Origin: a virus
Length of the DNA: 64,000 bases
Strand: one strand, 5' to 3'
IMG/VR virus record: IMGVR_UViG_3300027586_000003
Coordinates: 32,001 to 96,000 of that record
Positions 29,233 to 59,701 of this stretch are shown here, piece after piece (the stretch's first letter is position 1; the number at the start of each line of letters is the position of its first letter). The position numbers and the translations under genes were made by a program. The notes under the pieces are model-generated. The model ran no database searches and had not been told where the DNA came from. It was given only the letters and a program-made list of their open reading frames with translations.

Positions 29233-29664
29233 CTACACTGTTCGCGGCCCGAACTTGGCATCCAACTCTTTCAGATACGCCTCCATCTCCGGTGACTGCT
29301 CCCACACCGTCCCGTCATCCGGCACAAGGCGGCGGTCAACATCCTTCGGAAACTGCGTGAAGCTCGCTACGTCATTCGGCGTTGGCAACAATTCGACAGC
29401 CCGCGCCGGGTCATCCATCGGCACCACGGACAGATTGTAGTTTCCGCACAGCCTGATAAGGCTGTCGCAGAACAACTCCGGCTCGTCGGTGATGTCCACG
29501 CTCCGCTCGCTCTCCGGGTCAAAAAAGTCCTGCTTGACGACCATTTCCGTCGCGGCGGTGTCCGTCCAGCGCATCCTGCCGTCCGGCAGAAACTCAATCT
29601 CACCAGCCCAAATTCTCGCCTGTGTTTCACGCGAAAACTCCTGAATTTGAATGTGACGGCTCAT
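29233..29664 (-). CDS. Acidic hypothetical protein translationally coupled to the kinase gene (candidate immunity/partner)
   Basis: ATGA overlap at 29661-29664; Asp/Glu-rich, 143 aa. Confidence 0.55.
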   Translation of the reverse strand: MSRHIQIQEFSRETQARIWAGEIEFLPDGRMRWTDTAATEMVVKQDFFDPESERSVDITDEPELFCDSLIRLCGNYNLSVVPMDDPARAVELLPTPNDVASFTQFPKDVDRRLVPDDGTVWEQSPEMEAYLKELDAKFGPRTV

Positions 29665-31355
29665 GGTGCTCTCAGTCTAGCAAGGAAATTATCCGCATCT
29701 TTCGTCCCATGCGCCGACTTGCGCATCGCCTTGAAAAAAGTCGGGTTTGCGCCGCCGCTGGCATGAAGCATGGGTTGCAGATTAGCCGCACGCTGTTTCA
29801 TTGTCGAGACTGAACCGGGCAACAATCCATGCGTTGCTCCAAAGGTGTCAAGCCACGTTGCGAATTCTGGAGAATTTACTTTTCTTGAAAGCTCTGAAAC
29901 TCTCCGGTCTGCCGCTGCATCCATCTGAACCTCGTGCGCAAAAACCATCGCCGTAGAGACGTTGCCCCCAACAAGCCCGGTGTGCTCGTAGGTGTGGTGG
30001 CTCTCTGGCAACGTCAATCCGTGGTCAATTGGATGAAGCCTTCCAACCTTGTCAACCATCATGTTGCCACTATGTCGGTCAGTGTTTCCAGTGATGTAGT
30101 CAAGCACTGCCAACTCCGCCAACCTAGACTTGTCATTATCCCAAAGTTTCGGCCAAAACTTCTTTGCGCGAACCTCATCCCCGTAAGCGTTTTTGGTAGG
30201 CACTGAATCAGGATCGAAGTCAATCAACGATTGCAGTGAGCCTTTCTTGCCGTCCACTATCACCATCGCTGTTATGGAATGCTCAATCCCAAGTTGTTTT
30301 GCAATATCGTAGGAGGCAACCTCACGCTTCGCGCCGCTAACTGCACGATCATCAATGTTCGATCTGGCACCCTTACCTTCACCCGATTCCGGCTTGAAGA
30401 CGCCTTTCGTAACGGTTCCGTCGGCTGCGGTAGCCTTCAGAATGAAAGACTGGCTGTAGTTTTGCCTGCCGCCCAACTTGTCCAATTTTCTTGTGGTTGA
30501 AGTTGCAATATCGCCCGCCACTTTCTGCTGTTCGGCGTGAATGTTGGATTGGAAATTTCCGGGTGTGACTGGCGCAATTGGCTGCGCTGCCGGGGCGGCT
30601 TGGGCTACGGGGGCCACGGGGCGCATCGAATTTCGCTCCATGTGCGCTATCACGTCCTGCTGCCACCTTTTAATCCGTGGGGCAGCACCGTTCAGATTCA
30701 CGCCGCGCACAGCAGCCACGTCGTTGCGATAAATCGCCTGATTGATTGCGGCGATTCCAGCCCTTCCGATTGGTGCGTGTGCCTGTGGCCTAATGACTGG
30801 CGCACGCGGTGGCAGATGTTGCGCCGCTGCTTGCCGTGCAATAATCGCCGCTTGGCCTCGCAACGGGCCAGCCGCCGGGGGTTGCACTGCTGCCTGCCGT
30901 GCGATGTCCGCCGCGATTTTAGCGTCACGGACGGCCTGTGCGTTGGCTTCGGCGGCACGGGCGTTGTGTTCGGCCACAATGACCGCCCGGCGGGCGTCCT
31001 CTGGCGACGGAACTGGCAATGGGGCCGGTCGCTGAATCGCCGGGCGTGCGGCCTGCGGCGGTGGAGCCGTGTCCGGTCTGCCGGGGAGCGCACGGCGAGG
31101 GGGCCACTCGGCTGACATCGGATTCGGTTTCTCAACATCCGCCACCCGTTGCAGCCTGCCGCCGACCTTGGCGTAGTGCTTCCTGCCAAACTTGGGTATC
31201 TTCCCAATATCGCCTTGATTACCAGCCCCAGCCCCGACGTGGCACTTCAGGTCGCCTGCGATGAATCCGTCGCCGCACGCCTTACCACCACGCACACGGG
31301 CGTTTGCCAGCGTGCGTGCCGTGCGAACAATCTCGGCGTATGCTTGGTTGAGCAT
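29661..31355 (-). CDS. CG-tag cargo protein with C-terminal PI3/PI4-kinase-like (HipA-like fold) domain
   Basis: GVFKP, REVASY, GSLQ, LDYITGNTDRH.GN, IDHGL motifs; start set at MLNQAYA (31355) by identity to the N-terminus of the adjacent paralog. Confidence 0.8.
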   Translation of the reverse strand: MLNQAYAEIVRTARTLANARVRGGKACGDGFIAGDLKCHVGAGAGNQGDIGKIPKFGRKHYAKVGGRLQRVADVEKPNPMSAEWPPRRALPGRPDTAPPPQAARPAIQRPAPLPVPSPEDARRAVIVAEHNARAAEANAQAVRDAKIAADIARQAAVQPPAAGPLRGQAAIIARQAAAQHLPPRAPVIRPQAHAPIGRAGIAAINQAIYRNDVAAVRGVNLNGAAPRIKRWQQDVIAHMERNSMRPVAPVAQAAPAAQPIAPVTPGNFQSNIHAEQQKVAGDIATSTTRKLDKLGGRQNYSQSFILKATAADGTVTKGVFKPESGEGKGARSNIDDRAVSGAKREVASYDIAKQLGIEHSITAMVIVDGKKGSLQSLIDFDPDSVPTKNAYGDEVRAKKFWPKLWDNDKSRLAELAVLDYITGNTDRHSGNMMVDKVGRLHPIDHGLTLPESHHTYEHTGLVGGNVSTAMVFAHEVQMDAAADRRVSELSRKVNSPEFATWLDTFGATHGLLPGSVSTMKQRAANLQPMLHASGGANPTFFKAMRKSAHGTKDADNFLARLRAP

Positions 31356-31364
31356 TTTTTGGAA

Positions 31365-31390
31365 ATTAACTAAGCCGCTTGCCATGTCAA
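31365..31390 (-). promoter_or_regulatory. Candidate late-type promoter TTGACA-N14-GTTAAT
   Basis: Shared motif and spacing; ATG follows within 10 nt. Confidence 0.45.
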
Positions 31391-31416
31391 TAGCGATGCT
31401 TTTTAGTTTGCGGCAA

Positions 31417-32355
31417 CTATGTCACCATGCGACTGACTCTTGCAGCCGCCCATGTTTGCCCCGCGTCTCCGCCCCACAATGCCCACGCAATGCGGCCTGC
31501 GGAGGGAAAGCCATCTTCATTAGGCGTAAAACCTTGCCCCTTTTTATCAACTTCGTGTCGCGCAAAAAACGAGTGCATCCGCTTAACGGTGTCGTCGGAA
31601 AGATTTGATTCGTTGCTAATGTCCCTAGCGCGAGCAACCCCGACCTCGGTTCCTCCTCGGTTGTGTTCTCTGCGCCAAGCCAGACCGCGAGCGGCTTCCT
31701 CAATCATGTCTTTGCTCGGCTTGTTCTGAGATTTCTCAAACTCGGCAGAGTTGTTGAATGACTCGCCGCACGGTTGCCCGCTGTTCGCCAAGGCAACCGG
31801 CCCGTCGCACGCCGCCATCAATTCATCGAAGCTGAACTTGCCACGGTTCCGTAGCTGAACGTCCCGCTCAGTGACGCCGCCGACCAAGTTCTTAACCTGC
31901 TTGGCGAAGTGCAACATCTCGTCGAATCCGCGACTCGCCGCGTCCTTGATTGAGTCGTAGCTGTTGTGGAACATGGCTTTTGGAATCTCGTCCACGACCT
32001 CTAGCAGCGTCGCCCTGAACGTCTTCTCCATCTCTGGAATGGTGAACGTCTTTTGATGCTCGGCCAGCACTGCCTCTGGATTCTGTTCGTAGGCGAACCT
32101 CGCCCCGGCCCGCGTGTTCTTGCTCGCCACGACCATGAAAACCCGCTGCGTGCCGCTGGCGTCCTTTGCCTTGAACGTGACCGCCGCCATTCTGGCTGTC
32201 TCAGGCACGTCCACTCCGAGTTTGTCGCCCTGACCGGCGTGGCACTCTTTGTCCGCTGCTATGAAGCTGTCACCGCACGCCTTACCACCACGCACACGGG
32301 CGTTTGCCAGCGTGCGTGCCGTGCGAACAATCTGGGCGTATGCTTGGTTGAGCAT
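31417..32355 (-). CDS. CG-tag two-module head-associated protein
   Basis: One full and one partial tag; C-terminal RGLAWRRE.NRGGTEVGVARARD...KRMHSFFARHE...IAWALWGGDAG domain seen in phage head-region proteins. Confidence 0.7.
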   Translation of the reverse strand: MLNQAYAQIVRTARTLANARVRGGKACGDSFIAADKECHAGQGDKLGVDVPETARMAAVTFKAKDASGTQRVFMVVASKNTRAGARFAYEQNPEAVLAEHQKTFTIPEMEKTFRATLLEVVDEIPKAMFHNSYDSIKDAASRGFDEMLHFAKQVKNLVGGVTERDVQLRNRGKFSFDELMAACDGPVALANSGQPCGESFNNSAEFEKSQNKPSKDMIEEAARGLAWRREHNRGGTEVGVARARDISNESNLSDDTVKRMHSFFARHEVDKKGQGFTPNEDGFPSAGRIAWALWGGDAGQTWAAARVSRMVT

Positions 32356-32370
32356 TTTTCGGGAAAGTAA

Positions 32371-35300
32371 TTAGGATTGCTGCGATGTAAACGCGAGTTC
32401 CGGGTGTTCGTCCGGCTCGTCAGCGCGATTCTTCATCGCCTCCGATTCTTCGAGAATCTTGGCACGAACCTGCTCCGGCGTGACCTCAAAGTTTTTTTCC
32501 AGCACCCAATCACGGACGGACGCCTTGACCGCCCCGATTTGAGTCCCCTTGAGCTTGGGAGCCGCAGCCATAATGTCCTTGCCGGTGAACACGGCTGAGA
32601 GCCGCTTTTCCATCTCCTCTTTCTTGCCGAACTGCTCAACCAAGCGGTCGGCACGGCCCATCTTTTTCTCGAAATCCTCCGCCTTGAACAGCGCACCACG
32701 GGACGCTTCATCGCTGCGCATGACCTCTCGCAGCAGCGGCCAGTTCTTCTCCTGCCGGAACCGCAGCGCGAGCCTGTCGCTCACCGCGTCGAAGTTGTGG
32801 CCGACCATGTGGTGTTCCACCGCCAGCGCAATCGCCTCTTTCTGCTCGTTGCTGAACTTCAACCGTGCGGCTGCCTTCTCCAAGAGCGGGATGCCAGCGG
32901 CCTCGTGCGCGATGTAGGTCGGCTGGCCGTCCTTCTCACCACGGGTGGTGGCCTTGCCGATGTCGTGAAGCAGAATGGCGACGTTCGTTGTCGCATCATT
33001 GGTGTTGCTGGCCTTGACCGCCTCCAAGACGTGCTCATACACGCCGCCCTCCGGGTGGTGCTTCGGGTTGTGCGGCAGTCCACGCATCGCCGCCACCTCT
33101 GGCAGCGTGTGCTCCAGCAGCCCGGCCTCGCTCATCACCGACACGAACTTCGCCAGCGACTTGCCGTTGTCCGCCGCCTTGAACACCTCGTCACGGATGC
33201 GCTCGCCGGAAATCGTGGCGACTGACGGAGCCAGTTTCTTCATGGCGTCCATCGTCTTCGCTTCAATGTCGAAGCCCAGCCGACCGGCGAACCTCGCCGC
33301 CCGAATCATCCGCAACGGGTCTTCAGTGAACCTTGCCTCCGGGTCGCCGACGGCGCGAATCACCTTGGCTTCTATGTCGGCTTTGCCGTTCTGCGGGTCA
33401 ACCAAGTTGCCTGCGGCGTCCATCGCCATCGCATTGATGGTAAAGTCACGACGCTTCGAGTCTTCATCGAAGCTGCCCGCCGCCGTGACAGAATCCGGCC
33501 TGCGCTGGTCGGTGTAAGCCCCGTCCGTGCGGAACTGTGCGACCTCGAATGTGTGGCCCTCATGTGGAATCGCCACAATGCCAAAGTCTGCGCTGTTGCC
33601 GATTTCGTGCGAGCGGAAAGCGGACTGCAACTTCGCTGCGGGCAGCGGCGTCGCAATGTCGAAGTCCTTCGGCGTCTTGCCCATCACCATGTCTCTGACC
33701 GCGCCGCCGACAATGAGCGGATTCGTGCCGGGGAACTGCCGTTCAATCTCACCGAGGATGGACACGGCAGCCTTGGCCTGCGGGTTCGACTCAGCCATCT
33801 CTTTCAATCCGCCGCCTTCCTTGGGTGCGAACTTGCCGTCGGCGGCGCGAGGGTGAAGCGACTCCTCAAACTCGCCGGAGTTACTGATTTTGTTGCTCGA
33901 CTTGTTGAACCGTTTAGAGAGCGGGATGACGTTGCCTTGGTCGTCGCGGGTGATGGGGTCGGCGGATTTGATTTGGGAGGGGCTGAAGACGACAGTGACA
34001 TTGCTCGTGGCTGTCTGCCCCCCTTCGACTACGTTGCTTACCTTGAGAGAATCATGCCCGCGAGTTTGGGCAATGCCTGCGATGTCTCCTATGTCGCTGC
34101 GAGTATTGCCGTAGGTTACATCATACCACTGGGAGCCTTTTGCATCGACTGACAGCGGGTTATTAGTTTTAAGAAACACCTCCATTTGTGGCAGGTCGTT
34201 CACCGGAGAGTCTGCAAAGTATATCCCGTCACCTACGTCGTTTGAAAATTCAGTGAACTTCTTATCTGTCCCGTGATAAGCCTTGGTGCCATACCCCGCC
34301 GCCTTCGCCGCCTCATCCACCATCTTCTGAGCCGTGAACGTGTCGCCCGACGCCACCGCGCCTGCGTAGGCCGCGTCCTGCTCAGGTGTGACCCCCACAT
34401 GGCAAGTGTCGCCGGACTCAATAAAGCTCTCGCCGCAGGGCTGGCCGCTGTTGCTGATTTTGTTGCTCGCCCTGTTGAACCGTTTAGAAAGTGGGATGAC
34501 GTTGCCAGCGGAGTCGAACACAACAGGTGAAGACGACTTTATCCTAGCGGAGTCGAAAACAGCTATCTCCCTGCTGCGAGTTTTCACTTCACCAAGCCCA
34601 CCAGCCGTCATATATCCACTGACAGAATTGAATCCTTTTCTTATTAAGTCATCAATGTCTCTGCTAGATATGTTACTTGAAGACCTTATCCCGTCTTTAA
34701 CTGTTGCCGTTCGCCCCAAGTTGACAAAGTATTTTACAGGCTTCATCATACCAACACCAATGTCTGTGAACTTCAAAAGCCTGTTTGAATCTTCAACCGT
34801 CGGTGTTAGATAGACTGCTTTCCTATACGTTGTTTTTCCAACGCCTTCAGATGGCTTGTAGTCGTCCGGCAACTTGCCAGCGTCAACCGCCTTGACCCAA
34901 GCATCGGCCCCGTGCTTGGCCGCAAAGTCACCCCAAACCTCATTCTCAATCGAAAGCGGTGTCCGTGGATACTCGGTTTGAAAAACCTCAATCGGCGACC
35001 CATTTCTGGTTCGATGGTAGGCAACCGTGTAGCCAGCCGCCTTCGCCGCATCGTCCACCATCTTCTGAGCGGTCACAGTGTCACCCGCCGCCACCGCACC
35101 CGTATAGGCTGCGTCCTGCTCCGGCGTAACTCCGACGTGGCAAGTGTCTCCGGCTTCGATGAATGAATCACCGCACGGCTGGCCGCTGTTGCTGATGTTC
35201 CTGTCGCCCTTACTCCATGTGCCACGGTTGAATGCCGATTTAATCTGTTCAGGACGCAATGCGATGTAACTTGTGCCTTTGGACTCGCCCTTGTTATCGT

Positions 35301-38300
35301 AAATAACACCGTCGTAACCAATGCTGTTGAGCCACTTCACGTTCACGAGCCATCGCCCCTTGCTGCCATAGGTCGAGTTCTCGTTCAGTTCATCAATCCA
35401 TTCTTTGTGTTTGGATTTAGAGATTACCCCTTCGTTGAACATCTTGTTGTGAACATTGTGCCAATCAAAATCATCCAGCCTTAGTGGGTTTTTTATGCTG
35501 ATATAAACAGGCTTTATGTTCGCGCCTTCGGCGTAGGCTGGGTTTTCGTATCCTTGAAAGAATCGGCTTCTAAAGTTGTAATTTATGATGTCGTTTGCCT
35601 GCTGTGCCGTTCCGAAATGCGAGCCTAAACCTTCCTTTACCCTTCCAAACTCCGTGAAACCAGCATTGGTTCCGTGATAGACCACAAGCGGCTTCCCGTC
35701 CTTATCCACAACCTTCGAGTCTCCGAACCATTCCTTGAACTCAGGCGATTCTGTGCTGGCGGGCCTGAGTGCTGGCGCGGTCTGGCCTTCACCTTCACCA
35801 ACATGGCACGTTTTGTCTGCGGAGATTGACGACTCACCGCACGGCTTGCCGGTGTTTCTGTTCAGCATCGGTTCGTCACGATTCGCCAGCTTCTTCGGCG
35901 CAATGCCCATCTCCTTTGTGAACTTGTTTGCCGCCTTCAACACATCTTTGATGTCCATGTCAATTCGGCGCGTCTTGATTTTTGTGTCGCCGAACTTTCC
36001 GTCCTTCGCATCCAGCCCAATCTTCGCCGCCCAGCGGTGGTGCCCATCAATCACATAGCCATCACGCGACACGAAGATGGAGTTCTCATCAAGGCCGACC
36101 GCCTTCTGACCCTCCGGCGACATCATAAACGCCACGTTGCTGCCCTTCAACTCGCTCTGCGACGCTTTCAATGAAGAAGCAGGTTGGTCAATGTCTTCGG
36201 TCTTGACGCCCTTCTTTAAGAGGCTCTGAACGAACGCTTCGCCGACATTAACCTCGCCCGCTTTATCCTTCGGGAAATTTTTCTCATCGTCCACGGTTGA
36301 ACCTTTTACCGGAAACCCAGCCAGTTGCGGCATCTCGGAGCGTGGAATCGGCTTACCGTCGTCGCCCTTCAATGACTCGCCGCAGAACAGGTTGGTTCCC
36401 GGCACGGACACCTTGCACAGATTCAGGTTTACCTTCTCGCCGCTCTTCTTAGCTTCGTTAGCAAACTTGTGGATTTCCTCAATTGCGGTGTTGACCTCTT
36501 TCACGCTTTTCAGAACCACGTCACCACCGCCTTTAAGCGCAGTGACCGCCGCCTTGCCAGCCTCCTCTTCCGCTGTGGCCTTCACCGGCTTCTCCTCAAC
36601 CGCCTTGACCGCAGCTTCCGGTGCCTTCGGCGATTCAGCCGCCTTGGCCGCTTCCGGCTGTGCGCCAAGATACTCGCCTATCTTGTCGGAAAGTTTGCGC
36701 GACGCGCCGATGGCTCGCTGTTGCTGCTGCAAGGCGTGAAGGACTTTCAGTTCCTTCATCTTGTCTGTGTCAGGAAGAGCCTTCGCTGTCTCGACGTGCG
36801 CCTTCAACTCGCCAAGCAATTTGCCAACCTCTTCGATGCTTTTCGGCTTCACCATCTTGATTTGGCCGGACGCTGCCATTGTGGACATGGGCTTGGCACC
36901 CGCAGAATCCGTCTTGCCCGCCTTATCCGCCTTCGGAGTCGCCGCCACCGCCGCCGTGACCGGCGCATCCTTTGTCGGGGCTGTCTCGCCAATGTGGCAC
37001 TCCATTTCCTCGCCGATGAATGACTTGCCGCACGCCTTGTTTTCCAGTGTGCCTTCGCTGTTCTCCTTGACCAACTTCGCAATCTGTTCGTGCATCTCCT
37101 CTGCGGACACACCACGCGGGAATATAAAGCTCACGCGCCCGCCCGGAGCGGCATTCTGCAAGCGAATCTCCGCCATCTTGCCAAGGTCGAAAATAGCGAG
37201 TTCCTTCAACTGCTTGGCCTGCTCCATTGCGCCGCCGACCGCCTTGTGAATCTGAACCACGTCCAAGAAAATCTTGCCGCTCACCTTGTCAAACCAGCCG
37301 CCCATGTGCGCCAGAGGGTCTTTCTTCAACGTCTCTGCCGCCCGGTCGAAGAAACCCTTCACCGCCTTGACGGAAAGCTGCTTGGCGTTCAACACCACCT
37401 CTAAATGCTTGTAGGCACTGACTGCGAAGCCGGACTTTGGAGACTTGTTCTGAGCCGGTTCGTAGGTGAAGCCGCCTGACTTCCTGAGCTTCGTCACCAA
37501 CTGCTTTCCCTCTGCGTGTGAGAAGTCACCTTCACGGCACGTCTTGTCATCGGAAATGAAGGACGCACCGCATGGCTTGTTCGACAGCGCATCGTCTTCA
37601 ATCCACGGTGCGTCGTTGTCCAGTTCTTCGCTGACCGGCTGCGTCGTGTCCTCCATCTTCAACCACGCCTTGAACTCGTCAACCGTCATCGGCGTCACGT
37701 CGCCGACCCGCTCTGCACCGCGACCGTCGCTGAATCCCTTATGATATGTGCTGAGTGCGGTGAACAGGTTCGGGAACGCCAGCATGACCTTGTGTTCGTC
37801 AAAGTCACCCGTGTTGGCATCCACTTGGTCAATCACAAACACCTTGCTGGAATCGGGTGCGTCGCCGAGATACACGTCAACCTCATCTCCGTCGGCTCCC
37901 TCAGTGTCAATGACGTAGCCATACGAAGCTGGCATCACCGTCGCCCAAGTTTCCCCTTCACTGTTCGTCCCACTACGGACGCCGCCCTTGGGATTCTCGA
38001 CGCTGATTGACAGGCCGTTCCACGTCGCCTCGCCCTTCAGGTAGTTGCCGGACTCTTTCTGCGCATCCGTCGGAGCCGCCGCCACCGTCACCGGCTGGCC
38101 TAGCACGGTCGCTGCCACTATGTCGGTGCGGTTGTTGAACTTGCTGTTGTTGCTATTGAACCGCTGGGAAAGCGGAATCACACTGCCAGTATCATCACGA
38201 ACAACCGCATCACTTCGCTTGAATTTTGAAGTGTCAAAGATTGCAATATGCCTTCCGGTCGCTCCCGGCCCGTCGTGTATCGCCGCCGAGAATCCAGCCT

Positions 38301-39009
38301 TCAAAAGTCCAGCGGCTACGCTGCCATACCGACGCTCCAGCGAGATAAGCGGCAAAGCGTCAGTCACAGTTCTTCCGAGAAGTGTTCCGACGGCACCCGC
38401 AACTTCCGGCGTTATTGGCTTTGTCATGTCAACCACACGACCGCCAACGTAACCGGACGCAACTCGGCCAGAGGCAAGTTGCGCTGGATTCCAAGAGCCT
38501 TCCAAGGTCGCATAAATCGCGGGGCCAAGCACCGCTCCTTCCCTTGACTTTGAAATGTCGAAGTCTGCAAAATTAGCATTGGTTCTGTGAACAGCCGGGC
38601 CAACCGTATATCCAGCCGCCGCCGCCGCTTCATCCACCATCTTCTGAGCCGTGGCCGTGTCACCAGACTCCACCGCCTTCGCATACGCCGCGTCCTTCTC
38701 CGGCGTCACCCCAACATGGCAAGTGTCGCCATCCTCAACAAATCCAGCCCCGCACGGCTGGCCGTTCGTAAGCCGCTCAAACGAGTTTGGAACGCTAACC
38801 GCAGGATTAGCCCATTCACTCACCCTGTTCGCCCACGCGCCAGCCTGACGCGCAGGCGGGCCATTCTGGATGAACTCTTTGAACGCAGCACCTCCGGGAA
38901 GGACGGATTGCAATACTTGGCGGGTGACTGCCGCCGGAAACCGGGAGCGGTTCAGGAACGCAACCACCTCACGAACCCGCGTAGCGTAAATAACGGAGGG
39001 GTTGTGCAT
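32371..39009 (-). CDS. 2212-aa polyvalent polyprotein: ART-PolyVal x4, inorganic pyrophosphatase, unknown module, ParB/Srx, CCA-adding nucleotidyltransferase with HD domain
   Basis: YHGT..F..F/G.YF/KNPL/QIKS ART-PolyVal patterns; GNYLKG..ISVENPKG..RSG..YGY..GADGDEVDVY InPase; IDGHHRWAA ParB; VGGAVRD..DFDIAT, EDSKRRDFTINA, EDPLRMIRAARF, HHPEG, LLHDIGK for CCA-HD. Confidence 0.85.
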   Translation of the reverse strand: MHNPSVIYATRVREVVAFLNRSRFPAAVTRQVLQSVLPGGAAFKEFIQNGPPARQAGAWANRVSEWANPAVSVPNSFERLTNGQPCGAGFVEDGDTCHVGVTPEKDAAYAKAVESGDTATAQKMVDEAAAAAGYTVGPAVHRTNANFADFDISKSREGAVLGPAIYATLEGSWNPAQLASGRVASGYVGGRVVDMTKPITPEVAGAVGTLLGRTVTDALPLISLERRYGSVAAGLLKAGFSAAIHDGPGATGRHIAIFDTSKFKRSDAVVRDDTGSVIPLSQRFNSNNSKFNNRTDIVAATVLGQPVTVAAAPTDAQKESGNYLKGEATWNGLSISVENPKGGVRSGTNSEGETWATVMPASYGYVIDTEGADGDEVDVYLGDAPDSSKVFVIDQVDANTGDFDEHKVMLAFPNLFTALSTYHKGFSDGRGAERVGDVTPMTVDEFKAWLKMEDTTQPVSEELDNDAPWIEDDALSNKPCGASFISDDKTCREGDFSHAEGKQLVTKLRKSGGFTYEPAQNKSPKSGFAVSAYKHLEVVLNAKQLSVKAVKGFFDRAAETLKKDPLAHMGGWFDKVSGKIFLDVVQIHKAVGGAMEQAKQLKELAIFDLGKMAEIRLQNAAPGGRVSFIFPRGVSAEEMHEQIAKLVKENSEGTLENKACGKSFIGEEMECHIGETAPTKDAPVTAAVAATPKADKAGKTDSAGAKPMSTMAASGQIKMVKPKSIEEVGKLLGELKAHVETAKALPDTDKMKELKVLHALQQQQRAIGASRKLSDKIGEYLGAQPEAAKAAESPKAPEAAVKAVEEKPVKATAEEEAGKAAVTALKGGGDVVLKSVKEVNTAIEEIHKFANEAKKSGEKVNLNLCKVSVPGTNLFCGESLKGDDGKPIPRSEMPQLAGFPVKGSTVDDEKNFPKDKAGEVNVGEAFVQSLLKKGVKTEDIDQPASSLKASQSELKGSNVAFMMSPEGQKAVGLDENSIFVSRDGYVIDGHHRWAAKIGLDAKDGKFGDTKIKTRRIDMDIKDVLKAANKFTKEMGIAPKKLANRDEPMLNRNTGKPCGESSISADKTCHVGEGEGQTAPALRPASTESPEFKEWFGDSKVVDKDGKPLVVYHGTNAGFTEFGRVKEGLGSHFGTAQQANDIINYNFRSRFFQGYENPAYAEGANIKPVYISIKNPLRLDDFDWHNVHNKMFNEGVISKSKHKEWIDELNENSTYGSKGRWLVNVKWLNSIGYDGVIYDNKGESKGTSYIALRPEQIKSAFNRGTWSKGDRNISNSGQPCGDSFIEAGDTCHVGVTPEQDAAYTGAVAAGDTVTAQKMVDDAAKAAGYTVAYHRTRNGSPIEVFQTEYPRTPLSIENEVWGDFAAKHGADAWVKAVDAGKLPDDYKPSEGVGKTTYRKAVYLTPTVEDSNRLLKFTDIGVGMMKPVKYFVNLGRTATVKDGIRSSSNISSRDIDDLIRKGFNSVSGYMTAGGLGEVKTRSREIAVFDSARIKSSSPVVFDSAGNVIPLSKRFNRASNKISNSGQPCGESFIESGDTCHVGVTPEQDAAYAGAVASGDTFTAQKMVDEAAKAAGYGTKAYHGTDKKFTEFSNDVGDGIYFADSPVNDLPQMEVFLKTNNPLSVDAKGSQWYDVTYGNTRSDIGDIAGIAQTRGHDSLKVSNVVEGGQTATSNVTVVFSPSQIKSADPITRDDQGNVIPLSKRFNKSSNKISNSGEFEESLHPRAADGKFAPKEGGGLKEMAESNPQAKAAVSILGEIERQFPGTNPLIVGGAVRDMVMGKTPKDFDIATPLPAAKLQSAFRSHEIGNSADFGIVAIPHEGHTFEVAQFRTDGAYTDQRRPDSVTAAGSFDEDSKRRDFTINAMAMDAAGNLVDPQNGKADIEAKVIRAVGDPEARFTEDPLRMIRAARFAGRLGFDIEAKTMDAMKKLAPSVATISGERIRDEVFKAADNGKSLAKFVSVMSEAGLLEHTLPEVAAMRGLPHNPKHHPEGGVYEHVLEAVKASNTNDATTNVAILLHDIGKATTRGEKDGQPTYIAHEAAGIPLLEKAAARLKFSNEQKEAIALAVEHHMVGHNFDAVSDRLALRFRQEKNWPLLREVMRSDEASRGALFKAEDFEKKMGRADRLVEQFGKKEEMEKRLSAVFTGKDIMAAAPKLKGTQIGAVKASVRDWVLEKNFEVTPEQVRAKILEESEAMKNRADEPDEHPELAFTSQQS

Positions 39010-39456
39010 TTATAATCCGTCTTGGTCACGAAATGTTCGTTTGCGAGCATCAATTGTCGGCGTGAAAACTTGAGTTGTCTCAGCGTCTAGCACGCTCGGC
39101 AAGTCCACCGCAAAATTACAACGTGCCACGTCACGCAGAATCGCCATTGCCTCCCGCGCCGAATTCGCCCGGTGTCCGTTCGGGTCAATCAGCTTGCCAG
39201 CGCACCGCTTCTCCACCTCAACCACCAACAGGTCAAGTGTTGCCCCCAGAAGCTTCTCAGGAATCGTGTCATCCGGGCCAAGCCGATTTCGCTGGCACGC
39301 CGCAATGTAGCCCCGCACCAAATCTACAACCTGCAACGTCACCGCCGCTACCGGGTCGGCCTGCCCAGCCGCCAATGCCGCCGAACGGAAGGCCGCTAGT
39401 TCCGGGCCGCTGATGCGGGTCTTTAACGAGTTTTCAGAAACAAGAATCCAAGCCAT
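39010..39456 (-). CDS. Head-tail adaptor, Mu gp36/DUF1320-like
   Basis: 148 aa; VRGYI...IP..L....LDL......R.........R......A...LRDVA pattern; position after capsid. Confidence 0.7.
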   Translation of the reverse strand: MAWILVSENSLKTRISGPELAAFRSAALAAGQADPVAAVTLQVVDLVRGYIAACQRNRLGPDDTIPEKLLGATLDLLVVEVEKRCAGKLIDPNGHRANSAREAMAILRDVARCNFAVDLPSVLDAETTQVFTPTIDARKRTFRDQDGL

Positions 39457-39497
39457 AGTGCGAACCGCCGCAGGTCTGCGGCACGGCTCACGCCGTT

Positions 39498-39523
39498 GGT
39501 AACTGCGCCACCGTGGATTTCAA
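39498..39523 (-). promoter_or_regulatory. Candidate late-type promoter TTGAAA-N14-GTTACC
   Basis: Shared motif and spacing. Confidence 0.4.
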
Positions 39524-39549
39524 GCGCAAACGGCTGTCTAGGAATTAAA

Positions 39550-40028: not shown

Positions 40029-40042
40029 GTTGAGATTTTCGC

Positions 40043-40972
40043 TTAGGAGGTGATGTTCAGTCGGACGGCGGCAGTCGAGTTTGTCACCTTGACATCCTCA
40101 CTCCAGTCAAACTTGGCGACTTCCACACGCCCGTCGTCGCGGACGTAGCTGCCCGGCACCATGTAGTTGTTGGTGAGGCGGAACGTCTTCATAAACGACG
40201 GGTCGCGGCGCGTGGGGTTAGCGCGGCGGGCGAAGATGAGGACGGTGGAATCCAGCACGAAGTTGATGTCTTCGGCGACGCCTTCGGGGGCGTTGTCATA
40301 CACCATGTAGGACACGCGCACGTCAGGGGAGCCGAGGAACAGCGAGGACGCGGATTCCGGGGTGATGTTCGGGATGGCATTGCCGCCAGCCGTGGTGAAG
40401 CGAGCGCGGACGTTCGCCTGATTCTTGAAGATGCGAAACGCAGACGCACCGAACAGGACGCCGACACCCATGAGGGAGCCATACTTCGCGGCCTTGATGA
40501 CGGCGAGAACATAGGTGTCAATGTCGTTGACGGGGTCGGCGGACGAGTTCCACGTCTTGTCGGTTCCCGCTCCGATGCTGGAGAGCGCGGTATCCACGAC
40601 AAGCTTTTCGTGGGCGAGGCCCGCGATTTCAGCGACGAGGGTGGCACCCTCTTCGAGCACGGATTCCAGCCCTTCAGCTTCAAGCTCTTCGAGGTTGTCC
40701 ACAGGGAAGTCGAGGGCGTGCGGGGCGCAATTATAGGTTGCGTCGGCGACGGCGAACGAGAGTTCCGTGGCGCGTCCACCGATGCCACGAAGGGTGGCGG
40801 GGATGCGGAAGCGGTTCTTCTCGGTGTATTGCTTGTAGCGGCCAACGCTGGCAGCGACAGGCACGGTGGGGGCGATGAAGTCGGCGACAGGCTGAACGCC
40901 TTCCTGAGCCGCGCCTTGCGCGTAATCACGAAGCATCTTGCTCTCACTGACGGATTGGAGACGTGTAGGCAT
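40043..40972 (-). CDS. Major capsid protein
   Basis: 309 aa; VAD.IAP.VPV...GRY..Y pattern; follows protease, scaffold and cement, followed by a terminator. Confidence 0.8.
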   Translation of the reverse strand: MPTRLQSVSESKMLRDYAQGAAQEGVQPVADFIAPTVPVAASVGRYKQYTEKNRFRIPATLRGIGGRATELSFAVADATYNCAPHALDFPVDNLEELEAEGLESVLEEGATLVAEIAGLAHEKLVVDTALSSIGAGTDKTWNSSADPVNDIDTYVLAVIKAAKYGSLMGVGVLFGASAFRIFKNQANVRARFTTAGGNAIPNITPESASSLFLGSPDVRVSYMVYDNAPEGVAEDINFVLDSTVLIFARRANPTRRDPSFMKTFRLTNNYMVPGSYVRDDGRVEVAKFDWSEDVKVTNSTAAVRLNITS

Positions 40973-41014: not shown

Positions 41015-41440
41015 CTAGATAGTGACGTTGCCGATGTGAACCGGCAACACGTTGACAAGCTGGCCGTCAACGAAATCTTCGAGGGCGATGCCGATAACGG
41101 CATAGGTGCCACTGGCACCGGGGATAGCGCGAACCTTGCCCGCGTCGGCGGCGGTCGCCGGGTCAGCGTTCACCAAGCGAACGCCAGCAGCACCAGTGCT
41201 CTTGGCCTTCACGCGAACCGAGCCGCCGGAGAAGATGGGGCGAAGGGTGGATTTCTCGCCAGCCCCGGCCCCGTCCTCAACCACGCACAGGGCGTTGTCG
41301 GTGATGGCGGCGGGAACAGCGGCGGTCGCGGCACTGGAGGCCGATGCGATGACGACGAGGTAGCCCTCTTTACCGGACAGAGAGGCCGTGCTGTTCACGG
41401 CAATCAGGCCCGACTGAGTGTTCGACATTGTGGGGGACAT
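41015..41440 (-). CDS. Capsid cement/decoration protein (DUF2190-like)
   Basis: Ala/Gly-rich, 141 aa, ending GIALE...DGQLV.VL; directly upstream of the capsid gene. Confidence 0.65.
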   Translation of the reverse strand: MSPTMSNTQSGLIAVNSTASLSGKEGYLVVIASASSAATAAVPAAITDNALCVVEDGAGAGEKSTLRPIFSGGSVRVKAKSTGAAGVRLVNADPATAADAGKVRAIPGASGTYAVIGIALEDFVDGQLVNVLPVHIGNVTI

Positions 41441-41478: not shown

Positions 41479-42063
41479 TTAAATGGAGTTTTTGATGGAC
41501 AGTTCCGTGCGTGCCTTATGGAAGGCGTCTCGGTGAGCCATACCCTTGTTGGAAAGCTGAATCTCGGTTGTCCGGTTGCGAATCCACGCGCTGTCAGAGG
41601 CGGGCATGGTGGCAGCGGAATCGCCGACGATGGATGCCGGGAGAGCGGAACGGTTGCGATTATGCAACGGGGCGGACACGGTGGCGGTGTCAGCCGAAGG
41701 AGCAGCGGGAGCCGACTTCAGGCCGGTGAGGAACTTATACGTCGCATCACGGTTGGAAATCAGAGACTCCTTTACGGAGGCGGCGTCGCGGATGACCGAC
41801 TTGAACGCTTCCACGTCGCGGTTGGCAAGCTCTTCGAGGAGGACAACCGTGCGGTTCTGGAGCGACACAATCCGCTCATTAGAAGCGGTCGTCTCAGCGT
41901 TTGCGACAGCGACTTCATCGCGTGCCTTGAGGATGGCATCGTCCATCTGCTCCTTGTAGCCGACCATATCCTTTTGGAAGGATGAGTTAGCCAAAGAGAT
42001 TTCCTCGTCAGTGGCCGAATTCGCCAGACCGAGCAGACTGATAAGTTGTTCTTTGTGATTCAT
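41479..42063 (-). CDS. Head scaffolding protein
   Basis: LLGL..SATDEEI start typical of Mu gpZ-like scaffolds; coiled-coil character; lies between protease and cement. Confidence 0.7.
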   Translation of the reverse strand: MNHKEQLISLLGLANSATDEEISLANSSFQKDMVGYKEQMDDAILKARDEVAVANAETTASNERIVSLQNRTVVLLEELANRDVEAFKSVIRDAASVKESLISNRDATYKFLTGLKSAPAAPSADTATVSAPLHNRNRSALPASIVGDSAATMPASDSAWIRNRTTEIQLSNKGMAHRDAFHKARTELSIKNSI

Positions 42064-42131: not shown

Positions 42132-43352
42132 TCACCGTGAAATAGGAGTTAGACCCTTTAGGTTTGGCTCATTAGTCAAAGCTACTGAATCTAGCACCAT
42201 TGGACGCAACTGGCCGTTGTCAAGTGTTTCGCAATTGCGCTTGAGCCATACTGGCGAGACGAGCCTATACCGCCCGCCGTTGACCGCCTTCTCGCCTACG
42301 TCTGTCCATCGCACCTGTCCCCACATACCGTCGTTACGCTTGGCAAGGTTTTCAATCCAGCCGCCCGCCTCCGATGGCTTATCGCCTGACTGAGAGAAGT
42401 GGTCAAAGTCCAGCAATGCTCCGGTGAAGTTTTTGTCGCTGGCCTTGCGGGCGGCAAAGTTCGCCACCATAGCGTCCACCGATTTTGCATCAATCAGTTG
42501 CACCACGCCGGTTGGATGAGGATGGCTGCCGAACGGTGCAAGGTGAATCCAGCCGTCGGATGGAACACTGAATCGGTTGTTCAGCTTGCTCACGGCTTCA
42601 ACGCAGATGCCAAGCCGGACTTCGGATGTGTTTCCGTAAATGGTTTTACTCCGCAGCGGATACATCACCTTCACGCCTGACGAGTCTATCCTTTCCTCGT
42701 TGCTTTGAAGCGCGACTGGGATTCTCGTCCCCTTCGCGTAGGTGTCCACCCGGTATCCCTGCTTGTATTTTTCGCCTTCGTTAATCGTTCGATGCGTCTC
42801 GTCGGTTGTGACAGAGCTTAGAAGCGGGAGTTTCAAAGAGCGGCGGATGAAATCAGGAGTCGGTATCCCGTGGTCGTCTGTCGGAGCACTCACGAACTTG
42901 CCATCACTCATGTATTGCCAAACGGGTTGCTTGGTTTCCGGGTTCCACGTTCTGACGGATAAATTAGCCCGGTCAAAATCGGAAATGTCATGCGAACCTT
43001 CACCGCCGACATGGCATTGATGACCGTCAGGGATGTGCGAGTCGCCGCACGGCTGCCCGTTCGCCAAAGCCTGCTCACCGCTCAGGCTGTGCATCGGAGC
43101 CACCGTGTCGCCCTGTTCCTGTTTCGTAGCGTCTTCCGTAGCAGCGGAATCAATCTCCATCCGGGGAACGGTCTTCTGCCGCTCCCGATACTCACGCTGC
43201 TTCGCTGACGCCGTGATGCGGGCCAAACGGTCAGGGGTCAGGTTGTGCTGCCCAACGGCTACCTTCTTGGCGGTGACGTGCTGAGAGACACGGGCACGCG
43301 ACGGCGCGGCGGTCGTCTTGGTGCTGGCACGGTTGAAGAGTTTGTAGAACAT
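42132..43352 (-). CDS. Mu-like prohead protease (gpI family) with an N-terminal extension carrying a CG tag
   Basis: WIHLAP.G, LDFDH, A.GWI, GQVRWT..G...V....YR.VSPV, SVALTN.PNL motifs. Confidence 0.85.
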   Translation of the reverse strand: MFYKLFNRASTKTTAAPSRARVSQHVTAKKVAVGQHNLTPDRLARITASAKQREYRERQKTVPRMEIDSAATEDATKQEQGDTVAPMHSLSGEQALANGQPCGDSHIPDGHQCHVGGEGSHDISDFDRANLSVRTWNPETKQPVWQYMSDGKFVSAPTDDHGIPTPDFIRRSLKLPLLSSVTTDETHRTINEGEKYKQGYRVDTYAKGTRIPVALQSNEERIDSSGVKVMYPLRSKTIYGNTSEVRLGICVEAVSKLNNRFSVPSDGWIHLAPFGSHPHPTGVVQLIDAKSVDAMVANFAARKASDKNFTGALLDFDHFSQSGDKPSEAGGWIENLAKRNDGMWGQVRWTDVGEKAVNGGRYRLVSPVWLKRNCETLDNGQLRPMVLDSVALTNEPNLKGLTPISR

Positions 43353-56407: not shown

Positions 56408-59400
56408 TTAACAACTTGGCGTGTTTTCCGGCGTCTTTTTTCGCATGACATACCGCTTCGTTTCATCAAGGTTAGCCGTAGCCATCTTTATTGTTCCGTG
56501 AAACGTCTTGCCGACGAACATTTCAGCACCGATTTTAATGCACCCGTATTTAGCGGATGCCAGCCGAATCAGGTCACGCGGGTCGCCGCTGTCAACCAGC
56601 TTCATTAACTCTGTGTAAGCCTCTTCCGAAATCTTGGTTCCGGGGAGTGGAACATTGTCCGTCTTGTGGTTGTAAATTGAGTTTTTGTTAATCAGCGCAT
56701 TGCGTTTTTGCGACGCTTCATCTTTGGTGATTACGTTGTTTTTTTCATCGGTATCAATCTTGGCGATTTTAACAGCCGTGTCAGGCTTTGTGTGCCGACC
56801 GTCGCTCGCTAAGTTTGCGCCCTGCGTCTTCAGCCGCGCAAGCGTTGATCGGGCAATGGTGCGGTAGTTTTCCGCGCTGCCGTCTGATTCATCCGGCACG
56901 AATCCATGTTTAAGCCATACGTATCCGCCGTGCGAAAGCGCAGCAAAAACTTTTATTTCTTTCACCCCAGCCCGCTCGTATGCGCCAATGCTCTGCTTGA
57001 ACAGTCGTTGTGAAATCCCCTCTCCTTTGTTGTCTCCCGCATTAAAATAGCCATGATAAACAGATAGCCCATTTGCGCCCATGCTGAAGCTGCGCGTAAT
57101 AGCGGAAGGCATTCCCGGATGAATGAATGAAACTTCAAGCCCGCCACCGGAATCAGCGACGGCCTTCACTTGCCATTTCGCTGTGACGCTGCCAATTTTT
57201 TCAGGCAAATCACTCACCATTGACAGCACCGTGTCCTTTATTTTTGCCGCAACCTCTGTTTGTGGCACTCCAAACGTCGCCGCAACCACTCTGGCGTGTC
57301 TGATTAACGATGCGTCTTCAACATACGTTGCGTTGTGACCGGCTGCGCTGTTCGGCACAAAGTCAGACGGCTGAAAAATTACCGTCCCGTCACTTCTAGT
57401 TAAAGTTGCGCTCGCTTTGCCAACCCTCGCAAGAGTCTCCTCCTTTTCTAAGCGGCTGATTTCTTGAACCCGGCGTTCAGCCGAAAGTCTTGCAGCTTCA
57501 CGGGCTGGAGCAACCTCACTGGTTCTAGCCAGTAAGGCGGCACGATGCGCTTCGTTAGCGCGTTCTAAATCTGCGGCTGCGGTGCGTGTATTTGATTCAG
57601 CTTGAGCAATCGCTGGCGCGTGACTAGCAAAAGCCTGCCGCTCTGCCGCAGCGGCAGCGTTCCGCTCGGTTTCGGAACGGCTTTCAACGGCTTGCCGCTC
57701 GGAATCAATCCGGTTAATATCAGCCTGCTCTTCTGCGCTCAAGCTCCTTCCCGGTGGAATCACAACTGGATACACTGGATTCAACCGCGCCTGCATCGCC
57801 TCATCACGCACACGCTCCCTCTCAACGCGAGCTACCTCACGCGCCCTCGCTTCGGGGGTTAATGCAGCCTCACGCGCCTGCTGTTCCATGTGTGCAACGA
57901 CATTGGTGTGCCACGTCCGGTGCTGTGAAAGCGGCTCACCACCGCCAGCCCCAGCGGCCCGAACAGCATCTAAGTTGCCCGTGGCAATTGCGGTGTTCAC
58001 GCGGTCAACAAAAGCGCGAGTGTGGGGGTAGTCGTCAGACCTGCCAGCGCGGTCGCTTGGAATCTCTGGCGCGGCGGGTATCGAGTTCTGCGCAAGTTGT
58101 GCGGGTGCAGCGGGTGCAGCGGGTGCAGCAGCCTGTCCTGCTTGCGCTGCTTGTGAAAAACCATACTGACCAACGTGGTCAATGAGCCGCTGGTGATACT
58201 CACGTAGTATCGCATATTGACCGCGACTTGCATCCGAACCCGCCATCCTCAGATAGCGGATTGAGTCTGGATTGCGGCTGGCAACAGCAGAGCGGATACG
58301 ACTCAAATATCTCTGTCCCTCAACGTGATTCGGGTTGGTGTGTGGCTCACGCGGCAGCGGGGGCGCAACCACGGGGCTTGCTGCCGCTACGGGGCTTGCT
58401 GCCGCCACGGCTGCGGCTGCGGCTGCGGCTACGGGTGCGGCTACGGGTGTTGGGGCGGCGACCGGGACAGCGGCCTGCGCGGGAGTTCCGTTCTGCTCCA
58501 TGTGCCGAATCACGGCGGCTTGCCAGTCACGGGCGTTCTGATTGATTGGAGGGCTTGGAGAAATCGCCCTAACCGCAGCCAAGTTGCCAGTTCCAGCCGC
58601 CTCCCGAACCGCCAACACATAAGCGTGCGACAGCGGAGCGTTCGCCGGGTCGGAGAACGGCTGAACCGGAAGCGCGGCAATGAGTCCAGCGCGAACAGGG
58701 TCGGCCTGTGCGCCGCTGTTAATCGCCATCACCGCAGCTAAATCGTTTGCGGCGGCAGCGTCATTGGCTCGCAGATAGTCAACAACCGACTGACGCCACG
58801 CACGAACGTCCGCGTTCACTGAGGGTTCCAACTCCAAATCGGAAATCGCGTTGTAATTTCCAGCCCGCGCTAGTGGCAGAATTGTTGCGACCGCAGCCGT
58901 GCTGTCTGGAAATCTGCGCTGTATGTCCTGCAAACTGTATCTCTGTGGAGCCTCTGGCATCACTGACTGCGCCACGGGGGCCGCAGCGGGCGCGGAAACC
59001 GGAGCGGGTTGCCTTGCCTCCGGCTGCGCTGCCGCCTGAACCGCTGCCGCCACCCGTGCATCAGCCTCACTAGCGGCGCGTCTGGTGATTTCAATGGCCT
59101 GTTGAACGGCCTCCGCTCGTGCGGCATTCTCCCGCCCCATCGTCGCCGCCATCGCCGCGTCCAGAGTCGGTGAAGCGGAGACAGCGGGAACATCATCCAC
59201 AGTCGCTCGACGCCACCACCGCCCCGCCTGAAGTGTTGCCGCCTGCCTCGCCGCTTCAGCAGCCCGGTCAGTTTCAAGCTGCGCCGCCCGCGCATCAATC
59301 TCGGCGTGCCGCCGCGCAATAGCCGAAGTGTCCTCCGCCGGTTGTGCGGGTGCCGCAACCGGCTCTGGCCGCTGAATCGCCGGACGCTGCGCTTGACCGG

Positions 59401-59701
59401 ATTCTCGTGCGTGCAGGTTCGCTTCCCGACGGTCGGCTGCCCTCCTGAGAGTTTGGTAAGCGGCGGCTGGAATCTGGCTCCTTTCCTGTGGCAATCCTTG
59501 CGTCCGCTTCATTTCACGCTGAATCTCCAATACCCTCGCCTGACGCTCTGGCGTCCGCCGTGAACCCGCCCGCTGTGCGTCACCGGCCCCGACGTGGCAT
59601 TCAAGCCCCCCGGCGATGAAGCCGTCGCCGCAAGGCTGCCCCGTGTTCGCCAGTAGGCGGGCGTCATTTACGATAACTGTGTAGGCAGCAGTGGCGGTCA
59701 C
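56408..59701 (-). CDS. 1097-aa CG-tag protein with helical repeats and a C-terminal GNAT-like domain
   Basis: LANTGQPCGDGFIAGGLECHVG; repeated GNL.AVRA...W...V..HMEQ; KGEGISQRL...GVKEIKV.A...GGYVW.K.GF. Confidence 0.7.
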   Translation of the reverse strand: MTATAAYTVIVNDARLLANTGQPCGDGFIAGGLECHVGAGDAQRAGSRRTPERQARVLEIQREMKRTQGLPQERSQIPAAAYQTLRRAADRREANLHARESGQAQRPAIQRPEPVAAPAQPAEDTSAIARRHAEIDARAAQLETDRAAEAARQAATLQAGRWWRRATVDDVPAVSASPTLDAAMAATMGRENAARAEAVQQAIEITRRAASEADARVAAAVQAAAQPEARQPAPVSAPAAAPVAQSVMPEAPQRYSLQDIQRRFPDSTAAVATILPLARAGNYNAISDLELEPSVNADVRAWRQSVVDYLRANDAAAANDLAAVMAINSGAQADPVRAGLIAALPVQPFSDPANAPLSHAYVLAVREAAGTGNLAAVRAISPSPPINQNARDWQAAVIRHMEQNGTPAQAAVPVAAPTPVAAPVAAAAAAAVAAASPVAAASPVVAPPLPREPHTNPNHVEGQRYLSRIRSAVASRNPDSIRYLRMAGSDASRGQYAILREYHQRLIDHVGQYGFSQAAQAGQAAAPAAPAAPAQLAQNSIPAAPEIPSDRAGRSDDYPHTRAFVDRVNTAIATGNLDAVRAAGAGGGEPLSQHRTWHTNVVAHMEQQAREAALTPEARAREVARVERERVRDEAMQARLNPVYPVVIPPGRSLSAEEQADINRIDSERQAVESRSETERNAAAAAERQAFASHAPAIAQAESNTRTAAADLERANEAHRAALLARTSEVAPAREAARLSAERRVQEISRLEKEETLARVGKASATLTRSDGTVIFQPSDFVPNSAAGHNATYVEDASLIRHARVVAATFGVPQTEVAAKIKDTVLSMVSDLPEKIGSVTAKWQVKAVADSGGGLEVSFIHPGMPSAITRSFSMGANGLSVYHGYFNAGDNKGEGISQRLFKQSIGAYERAGVKEIKVFAALSHGGYVWLKHGFVPDESDGSAENYRTIARSTLARLKTQGANLASDGRHTKPDTAVKIAKIDTDEKNNVITKDEASQKRNALINKNSIYNHKTDNVPLPGTKISEEAYTELMKLVDSGDPRDLIRLASAKYGCIKIGAEMFVGKTFHGTIKMATANLDETKRYVMRKKTPENTPSC

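Follow-up and report, generated by a model that had tools for sequence, protein, structure and literature searches.

How polyvalent proteins are packaged and separated is a gap in the study of phage-delivered effectors, a growing topic in host takeover and counter-defence. The question is raised by a 64,000-nucleotide (nt) stretch of viral DNA (the window; bases 32001 to 96000 of the linear, 105,001-base IMG/VR virus record IMGVR_UViG_3300027586_000003, estimated to be 77% complete), in which six long open reading frames (ORFs) carry a short two-cysteine element, here called the tag or hairpin. The answer that we propose is a rule: each module is preceded first by a putative cut motif that also occurs in the scaffold and then by a conserved hairpin, and this arrangement recurs in two phage lineages with different proteases. 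A first, sequence-only reading of the same DNA had suggested that the tag recruits cargo into the prohead and that a Mu-like protease cuts after Asn to release the modules.

Two-cysteine tags at module junctions

A six-frame scan with the regular expression [GNS][QKL][PA]CG-x-[SG]-x-[IV]-x5-C[HRG] returned 14 strict tag copies, all on the minus strand, which carries nearly all long ORFs of the window, and all within the same six ORFs; 100 codon-block shuffles gave none. A profile search of the 105,001-base record recovered the same 14 copies plus a truncated fifteenth, and no copy anywhere in the record outside the window. A polyvalent protein of 2212 amino acids (aa; 32371..39009) carries six strict copies (38716..38763, 37534..37581, 36994..37041, 35803..35850, 35137..35184 and 34399..34446, numbered 1 to 6), with the first cysteine at aa 86, 480, 660, 1057, 1279 and 1525, and a 761-aa protein (43356..45641) encoded directly upstream of the protease carries four (45252..45299, 44958..45005, 44448..44495 and 43680..43727; aa 118, 216, 386 and 642). 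Single strict copies occur in a 406-aa protein with a C-terminal Mu-like prohead protease (42132..43352; tag at 43011..43058, aa 102), a 574-aa PI3/PI4-kinase-like protein (29661..31385; 31239..31286, aa 37), a 312-aa protein (31417..32355; 32239..32286, aa 27) and an Ala-rich 1097-aa protein (56408..59701; 59594..59641, aa 24) whose gene lies about 9 kb from the head genes. The truncated copy is the second tag of the 312-aa gene (about 31756..31797, minus strand), which retains only the first half, GQPCGESF, and is divergent thereafter. The counts per gene agree exactly with the earlier tally of about 15 copies in six genes.

All 14 strict copies have an Asn 3 to 9 residues ahead of the first tag cysteine, and in 13 of them it closes a hydrophobic-x-Asn triplet (LTN, LSN, LEN, LFN, YSN, MVN and IVN once each, ISN twice, LAN four times). 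The remaining copy has NRN, with MLN two residues farther upstream, so that the hydrophobic-x-Asn site noted before each tag by the sequence-only reading is all but universal here. Known Pfam domains of the 2212-aa protein have tags between them: InPase (aa 315-451), ART-PolyVal (1102-1262) and a CCA-adding enzyme (PolyA_pol/CCA, 1766-2072), the last accompanied by an HD domain; the protein also contains further modules resembling ADP-ribosyltransferases (ARTs). Its description as a string of polyvalent effector modules is upheld by the InPase, ART-PolyVal and CCA domains and by genes that adjoin head genes. That each tag opens a new folded module agrees with the placement of tags between known domains, and may also hold for modules without a known domain. 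At E<=0.01, a domain scan of the 2212-aa protein turned up no peptidase domain.

Several of the proteins begin with a leader that itself ends in hydrophobic-x-Asn. The kinase, the 312-aa protein and the 1097-aa protein share an amphipathic leader, AYxxIVRxARxLAN (a leader helix in the first two), and LAN is followed directly by the tag region, as LAN-T in the 1097-aa protein. The protease protein opens with MFYKLFN, then has LAN-G, the tag and an unassigned middle domain, and the 761-aa protein opens with MTQFYKLFN. The same (M)FYKLFN start, a short leader ending in a putative cut site, is found in the relatives P0008 and P0039.

DNA identity among the tags and their flanks is 60-89%. Direct DNA repeats lie at the cassettes (29661-45641): one of 132 nt (89% identity) that the kinase and 312-aa genes share at their starts, one of 170 nt (75-81%) at the starts of three ART modules and one of 66 nt (88%) at module ends. 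The second tag of the 312-aa gene breaks off half-way, precisely where the relative P0010 runs on into an ART module. Moreover, a domain of the 761-aa protein (aa 250-360) is a standalone, untagged gene of about 110 aa elsewhere, and a metagenome scan found only standalone copies of it. These observations fit an exchange of modules at the cassettes, with the direct repeats as possible recombination points. The standalone domain is widespread as a phage gene (window 44526-44948, aa 232-372; L135:9878-10186, L136:8135-8449, L136:13120-13518 and L141:9797-10093). Its AlphaFold2 (AF2) model, with a predicted local distance difference test (pLDDT) score of 75, comprises two helices, a five-stranded sheet and a C-terminal helix, and a fold search found no clear PDB neighbour for it.

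Hydrophobic-x-Asn as a candidate prohead-protease site

The main evidence that the triplet is a protease site comes from a scaffold-like protein of 194 aa (41479..42063, minus strand) that carries no tag. Scoring an Asn as in motif when L, I, V, M, F or Y stands two residues upstream (position -2), 10 of its 12 Asn qualify against 26% expected (p=5e-5), and other polar residues in this protein show no such enrichment. Ten head-region (head-interior) proteins pooled have 105 of 288 Asn in motif (p=1.4e-6), and four large tail proteins are not enriched (109 of 426, p=0.66). In per-protein shuffling the observed count was reached in 0 of 500 shuffles for both the scaffold and the 761-aa protein. 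Two further minus-strand genes in the region encode a 141-aa protein with a weak scaffold match (phrog_673; 41015..41440; 4 of 6 Asn in motif) and a low-complexity 519-aa protein (45645..47204; 11 of 30), which also contains other short post-Asn motifs. The last 50 residues of the Mu-type portal of the same phage contain a cluster of MLN-R, LEN-I and VDN-K, which fits the C-terminal trimming of the Mu portal. Substrates of the prohead proteases of T4-type and giant phages have a similar appearance. Taken together, the site statistics indicate that hydrophobic-x-Asn is probably the cleavage motif of the head protease.

The candidate enzyme occupies aa 269-404 of the 406-aa protein and matches PF10123 with 72.4 bits (cut-off 25.2; profile positions 1-133), or 74.4 bits in a genome search. 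Alignment with Mu gpI pairs its LDFDH with IDYEH and its LVSPVW with YLSAVF, conserving a His and a Ser that are presumably catalytic, as in HK97/assemblin-type proteases. The protein ends within about 12 residues of the protease domain, and the scaffold (the gpZ part) is not fused to it, being a separate ORF. All four Mu-like protease domains compared (window 42132-42590, L002:6018-6620, Mu gpI and PaMx73 gpI) end in hydrophobic-T-N-[DE]-P, which could be structural, or else an ancestral site of self-processing at the protease-scaffold boundary.

An Asn specificity of Mu-like proteases in general was considered and rejected, since the scaffolds of Mu and PaMx73 show no enrichment; Asn specificity, if real, is therefore confined to the present lineage. 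The earlier proposal that the Mu-like protease cuts after Asn is thus sustained here by the enrichment of the site in scaffold and head proteins but not tail proteins, and fails as a general property of the family.

Co-variation of the site in related phages and in a second lineage

The lineage of the window is represented here by two records only, its own and a 58.7-kb IMG/VR record (L002) that is syntenic with it from the protease to the neck genes. A search for related loci with the protease alone returned none, and with a neck protein only the record of L002 again. In L002 the Mu-like protease is fused to the scaffold, and 14 of the 23 Asn in the fusion are in motif (p=9e-5), mostly as FANE; its tags follow FANEGG or AANEGG, and its portal tail contains SFANE. 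With FANE both in the scaffold and before the tags, the post-Asn residue has changed jointly in scaffold and cargo junctions.

The second lineage comprises 132 IMG/VR loci with a different protease (phrog_530), one of which (L066) has the order terminase, portal, tag protein, MuF, three further tag ORFs, phrog_530 protease and major head protein. Arg-x-Asp is present within 14 residues upstream of 247 of the 266 tags in this lineage, and Asn is near only 41. Its protease-scaffold homologues contain 160 Arg-hydrophobic-Asp triplets against 29 expected, a 5.5-fold enrichment that represents a few independent events and not 30 because the homologues are mutually related; hydrophobic-x-Asn in the same proteins reaches only 1.08-fold, and Arg-hydrophobic-Asp in the terminase of the lineage 0.7-fold. 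The pattern is reversed in the scaffolds of the window, and such reciprocity is what a protease site shared between scaffold and tag junctions predicts. Two more records with phrog_530 proteases have 5 Arg-hydrophobic-Asp triplets in the scaffold half, against 0.6-0.8 expected.

Tag genes lie in or beside head modules in the window, L002 and L066. The 2212-aa gene, for instance, is located between a gp36-like adaptor and the neck and tail genes, 1 kb from the major head protein, in a synteny conserved in L002. That the tag goes exclusively with Mu-like proteases, an association which the sequence-only reading would have had checked by co-occurrence, was rejected: PF10123 is present in 2 of the 8 tag-bearing viral records examined, and phrog_530 proteases are found in others. 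The stretches searched of S-CBS4 (1-22 kb) and P-SS2 (1-50 kb) contain no tag. In another tag lineage, GQ[ML]x[LS]L[FDN] precedes the hairpin (L001 tags 3122-3235, 4052-4165, 5921-6034 and 7486-7599; P0028, P0038, P0044 and P0051), a sequence that resembles the bacterial beta-clamp-binding motif QL[SD]LF.

The hairpin family and its cellular relatives

The core of the hairpin, G-(Q/K)-P-C-G-(D/E)-S-(F/H/W/Y)-I-x5-C-(H/R/K)-x-G, spans 18 residues, and a Gly/Ala/Pro-rich spacer comes after it. When 1.84 billion representative proteins were searched with a profile, at least 310 protein clusters matched at E<=1e-3, of which 57 did so at E<=1e-10, with the 2212-aa protein of the window as the top match. 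The family consists mostly of phage polyvalent proteins, and most matches are long proteins with 2-6 copies each; some tag proteins elsewhere have a short leader of 5-10 residues before the tag, or the tag at their very start. Across the wider family, 57% of copies lack an Asn in their vicinity, and some lack any obvious site. Domains in 39 other tag-bearing proteins include ART-PolyVal, InPase, other ARTs, NUDIX, 2H, LRAT, DnaJ, kinases, NAPRTase and LPD1, and one record (L007) encodes a fusion of portal, tag and InPase. A zincin-like (ATLF) match was obtained in one distant tag protein only.

No Pfam, NCBIfam or PHROGs model matches the hairpin, nor is it among the Pfam LPD models. AF2 applied to a 29-sequence alignment gave a small hairpin with a core pLDDT of about 80 and no structural neighbour; PDB yielded no match either by profile search or by fold search with this model, and the ESM Atlas likewise nothing. 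We found no published description of the hairpin, and a word search for the tag peptides was empty. The hairpin is a real, previously undescribed junction element, and its definition here adds an unannotated mini-domain of at least 310 protein clusters. Only two cysteines are invariant; position +4 is F, H, W, Y or C, the residue behind the second cysteine is H, R, K or N, and the four conserved metal ligands of a zinc ribbon or zinc knuckle were not found. A complete zinc site inside one hairpin appears unlikely because just two cysteines are invariant, which also makes the earlier suggestion that the tag may bind metal doubtful.

Short secreted repeat proteins of cells carry the same hairpin core. 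In about 35 bacterial proteins, most of them with a signal peptide, the C-terminus carries a nine-cysteine motif, CC[KR]xC-x2-3-G[KQ]PCGD[ST]CI-x5-C[HN]KG-xGCAC, the centre of which equals the phage tag. The proteins derive from Alphaproteobacteria, Myxococcota, Gemmatimonadota and others (L010-L052, e.g. L017:3638-3862:- and L035:660-917:-), and no Pfam or NCBIfam model matches the motif. The Myxococcus cysteine-rich repeat (DUF4215/TIGR02232) gave weak, sub-threshold matches. The cellular modules share with the phage tag the core and the spacing CG-D-S/G-x-I/V-x5-C (as in CCKxC...GKPCGDSCI...CHKGxGCAC), but have 3-9 cysteines, signal peptides and no protease site, whereas the phage tag has two cysteines and is made in the cytoplasm. 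Since the core is present in cellular proteins too, the hairpin is an autonomous mini-fold, probably stapled by its cysteine pair, that phages have recruited.

A proposed protease-cut junction cassette and its alternatives

From computed features, namely the motif and its positions, the site statistics, the co-variation between lineages, the domain content and the gene neighbourhood, we infer cleavage, packaging and ejection of the tagged proteins as follows. The six proteins would be head-packaged cargo, or cargo-carrying head proteins, of the phage polyvalent kind, cut into separate enzymes; this is the model that we prefer, at about even odds. Each module would be preceded by a cassette made up of a prohead-protease site (hydrophobic-x-Asn), 0-6 residues, the hairpin GQPCG-x-S-x-I-x5-CHxG and the Gly/Ala/Pro-rich spacer, with the cut predicted to fall after Asn. 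The precursors may enter the prohead as whole chains, either by way of their N-terminal leaders or as part of, or bound to, head proteins. There the Mu-like protease would degrade the scaffold at hydrophobic-x-Asn and cut the cargo chains at their junctions. The freed enzymes (pyrophosphatase, ADP-ribosyltransferases, CCA-adding enzyme, kinase and others) would each retain the hairpin as a new N-terminal cap and be ready for ejection with the DNA.

The position of the hairpin 2-8 residues past the cut site under different proteases suggests a function tied to the cut or to the new N-terminus. One tentative assignment is a shared handle by which cargo is held or retained in the core; in its favour, the tag persists on a gene that is 9 kb away from the head operon and on proteins that start directly with it. 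Something else, for example a task performed after ejection or a latch based on redox or metal chemistry, is an equally tentative possibility, and a structured primed-side element that presents or times the cut is slightly less likely than either. We are doubtful of a wider reading, in which the hairpin is a portable, lineage-independent handle that, joined to each phage's own protease site, forms a general load-cut-release system for injected enzymes in hundreds of uncultured lineages.

Several observations weigh against the junction cassette as set out above. Relatives of the hairpin occur in secreted bacterial proteins, showing that the fold is not virion-specific, and the mutual relatedness of the second-lineage homologues lessens the weight of their enrichment. 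Neither the Mu nor the PaMx73 scaffold has an Asn signal, and the JBD30 structure paper states no cleavage specificity. Beyond their one junction the kinase and the 1097-aa protein have no motif enrichment, and the 1097-aa gene sits among replication-type genes, so its product could be cytoplasmic. Finally, the phage is uncultured, and no GenBank phage relative was found for the head-region DNA, the 761-aa protein or the tag proteins of the second lineage.

The reading from which this work started, that the cysteine hairpin is itself a capsid-targeting signal which binds capsid, scaffold or portal and is retained on each released enzyme, would explain why the tag is common to unrelated proteins, one of them the product of a gene about 9 kb away from the head genes, why it lies at the extreme N-terminus of some relatives and also on the protease and the neighbouring 761-aa protein, and why, within phages, it is limited to head-module and polyvalent proteins. 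We nevertheless consider it unlikely, although the most probable of the rivals. The cargo of the portal-tag-InPase fusion is already targeted by the portal, up to six copies per chain would be redundant, the N-terminal leaders, which end in a putative cut site, occupy the place of the T4 targeting sequence and compete for the role, and secreted bacterial proteins have relatives of the hairpin. Two lineages that differ in their protease both have the hairpin in a constant place just behind the putative cut site, which points instead to a cleavage-linked role. Recruitment of cargo by the tag is thus possible without being favoured over its rivals, and the sequence-only reading as a whole is supported in part, for the motif, the effector arrays and, probably, the site. 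If that cleavage-linked role were all, the hairpin would be a substrate signal, a rigid primed-side element that presents junctions or delays their cutting until assembly is done, with no part in targeting. The gap of only 2-8 residues between Asn and the first cysteine, the coupling of site and hairpin in both lineages although protease family and site differ, and the presence of hairpins at portal-cargo and protease-internal junctions are in keeping with this. We find it a shade less probable again, as scaffold sites lack the hairpin, so that the protease can do without it; tags after a 5-10-residue leader or at a protein start would release little or nothing; and the 57% of wider-family copies without a nearby Asn, some without an obvious site, do not fit.

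The packaging of the tagged proteins is deduced from sequence, and the 1097-aa gene lies amid non-structural genes; with hairpin relatives in cellular secreted proteins, one may ask whether these are capsid cargo at all, or large enzymes of the infected cell in which the hairpin is a generic cysteine-stapled or metal-binding linker and the Asn pattern a compositional or structural habit of the lineage. This appears improbable given an Asn-specific enrichment that head-interior proteins alone show and tail proteins lack, its co-variation with a different motif in another lineage, the position of the genes inside head modules and a domain repertoire typical of phage-type polyvalent proteins. Viral coat proteins and inteins cleave at Asn, and Asn is the invariant residue of the junctions, so the chains might also cleave themselves without a protease; assisted by the hairpin, the Asn would cyclise and thereby break the peptide bond that it is part of, in the manner of asparagine peptide lyases. 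We regard this as very improbable, because the scaffold is full of the same motif yet lacks the hairpin, the post-Asn residue is variable (G, S, T, A, K or R), the second lineage has Asp in that place and a conserved protease is encoded next door.

Comparison with known systems

Phage-type polyvalent proteins are long, encoded next to virion genes and composed of unrelated effector domains strung together (Iyer, Burroughs, Anand, de Souza and Aravind, 2017; PMC5512222). The same study defines InPase and ART-PolyVal and proposes head packaging, injection and processing into functional units, ascribing the processing mainly to embedded zincin metallopeptidases, which are present in about 36% of members and are not obligatory (PMC5512222). 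A cysteine hairpin goes unmentioned there, the words 'cysteine', 'Cys' and 'ZnR' appearing nowhere in the text (PMC5512222). The 2212-aa protein resembles these proteins in having several unrelated domains in one chain (InPase, ART-PolyVal, PolyA_pol/CCA and HD), but no embedded zincin was found in it, and we ascribe its cutting to a prohead protease that would act in trans on a motif shared with the scaffold.

The prohead protease of T4 cuts at L/I-x-E. T4 internal proteins and Alt carry a capsid targeting sequence that is removed by this protease, gp21 (PMC9026906). The present system would, as predicted from the sequence, resemble T4 in bringing enzymes into the prohead core, in leaders that end in hydrophobic-x-P1 and in a protease that also degrades the scaffold. 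It differs in having Asn at P1 where T4 has Glu, in its Mu-like protease (PF10123) and in a cargo of polyproteins with internal sites; furthermore, a conserved hairpin would remain on the mature N-terminus, for which T4 has no counterpart. In the giant phage SPN3US, gp245 cuts many head and ejection proteins at A-x-E, cuts propeptides several times and processes itself (PMC10052503). Many sites of one short motif in head substrates are common to both phages, but in SPN3US these belong to N-terminal propeptides of single proteins, and neither a shared post-site module nor effector polyproteins are described. Mu and the Casadabanvirus (D3112-like) phages, with their gpI-gpZ, have a homologous protease domain (25-30% identity; His, Ser and the LTN[DE]P end), a Mu-like head gene order and a Mu-type portal in common with the window phage. 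Unlike them, the latter has its scaffold in a gene of its own and a protease with an extra 260 N-terminal residues including the tag; the Mu and PaMx73 scaffolds lack the Asn signal, and no MuF domain was found in the whole record of the window.

The system is, as far as its predicted processing goes, the polyvalent-protein theme combined with a processing logic like that of T4 and the giant phages. Three apparent particulars are without description in the sources searched: the conserved hairpin after the site, the Asn-ended site and the putative processing in trans by the head protease. A rule of this kind would let metagenomic sequence reveal the specificity of prohead proteases, the cargo set of uncultured phages and the exact mature ends of released enzymes. 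Should the hairpin serve to load or retain cargo, it would offer a small device for filling phage capsids with proteins. If the doubtful portable-handle reading were true, appending a cassette of about 30 residues would be a way to bring foreign proteins into capsids, and cargo sets and protease specificities would be readable from sequence alone.

Gene neighbourhood and further motifs

The region of the tagged genes holds a Mu-like head module with a major head protein, two scaffold-like ORFs, the protease and a gp36-like adaptor, followed by neck and tail genes. The major head protein (40043..40972, minus strand) was identified by a PHROGs match (phrog_1005), and the Mu gp36-like head-tail adaptor (39010..39456, minus strand; weak match) marks the border of head and neck ahead of the polyvalent gene. 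The 519-aa ORF (45645-47204) was considered as the portal and rejected, as the Mu-type portal (PF06074) was found outside the window at 102513-104102 of the record. The portal gene is thereby about 25 kb from the remaining head genes, with replication-type genes between. A 'phage/plasmid-like protein' (TIGR03299/phrog_1221) is encoded at window positions 47273-48247, and homologues of it lie upstream of the terminase in the second-lineage records L053, L066 and L088.

Two further short motifs follow hydrophobic-x-Asn. SEGxxKGWxTRR occurs three times behind it (LVN-G, VEN-AG and IAN-AG), twice in the 519-aa protein (aa 30-45 and 293-310) and once in the 761-aa protein (aa 467-485), and may be another post-site element. 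Ahead of the CCA-adding module of the 2212-aa protein, EFEESLHPRxxDGKF after ISN-SG takes the place of the tag (aa 1710-1727, about nt 33829-33882), and a degenerate form of it is present in the 312-aa protein (aa 200-210).

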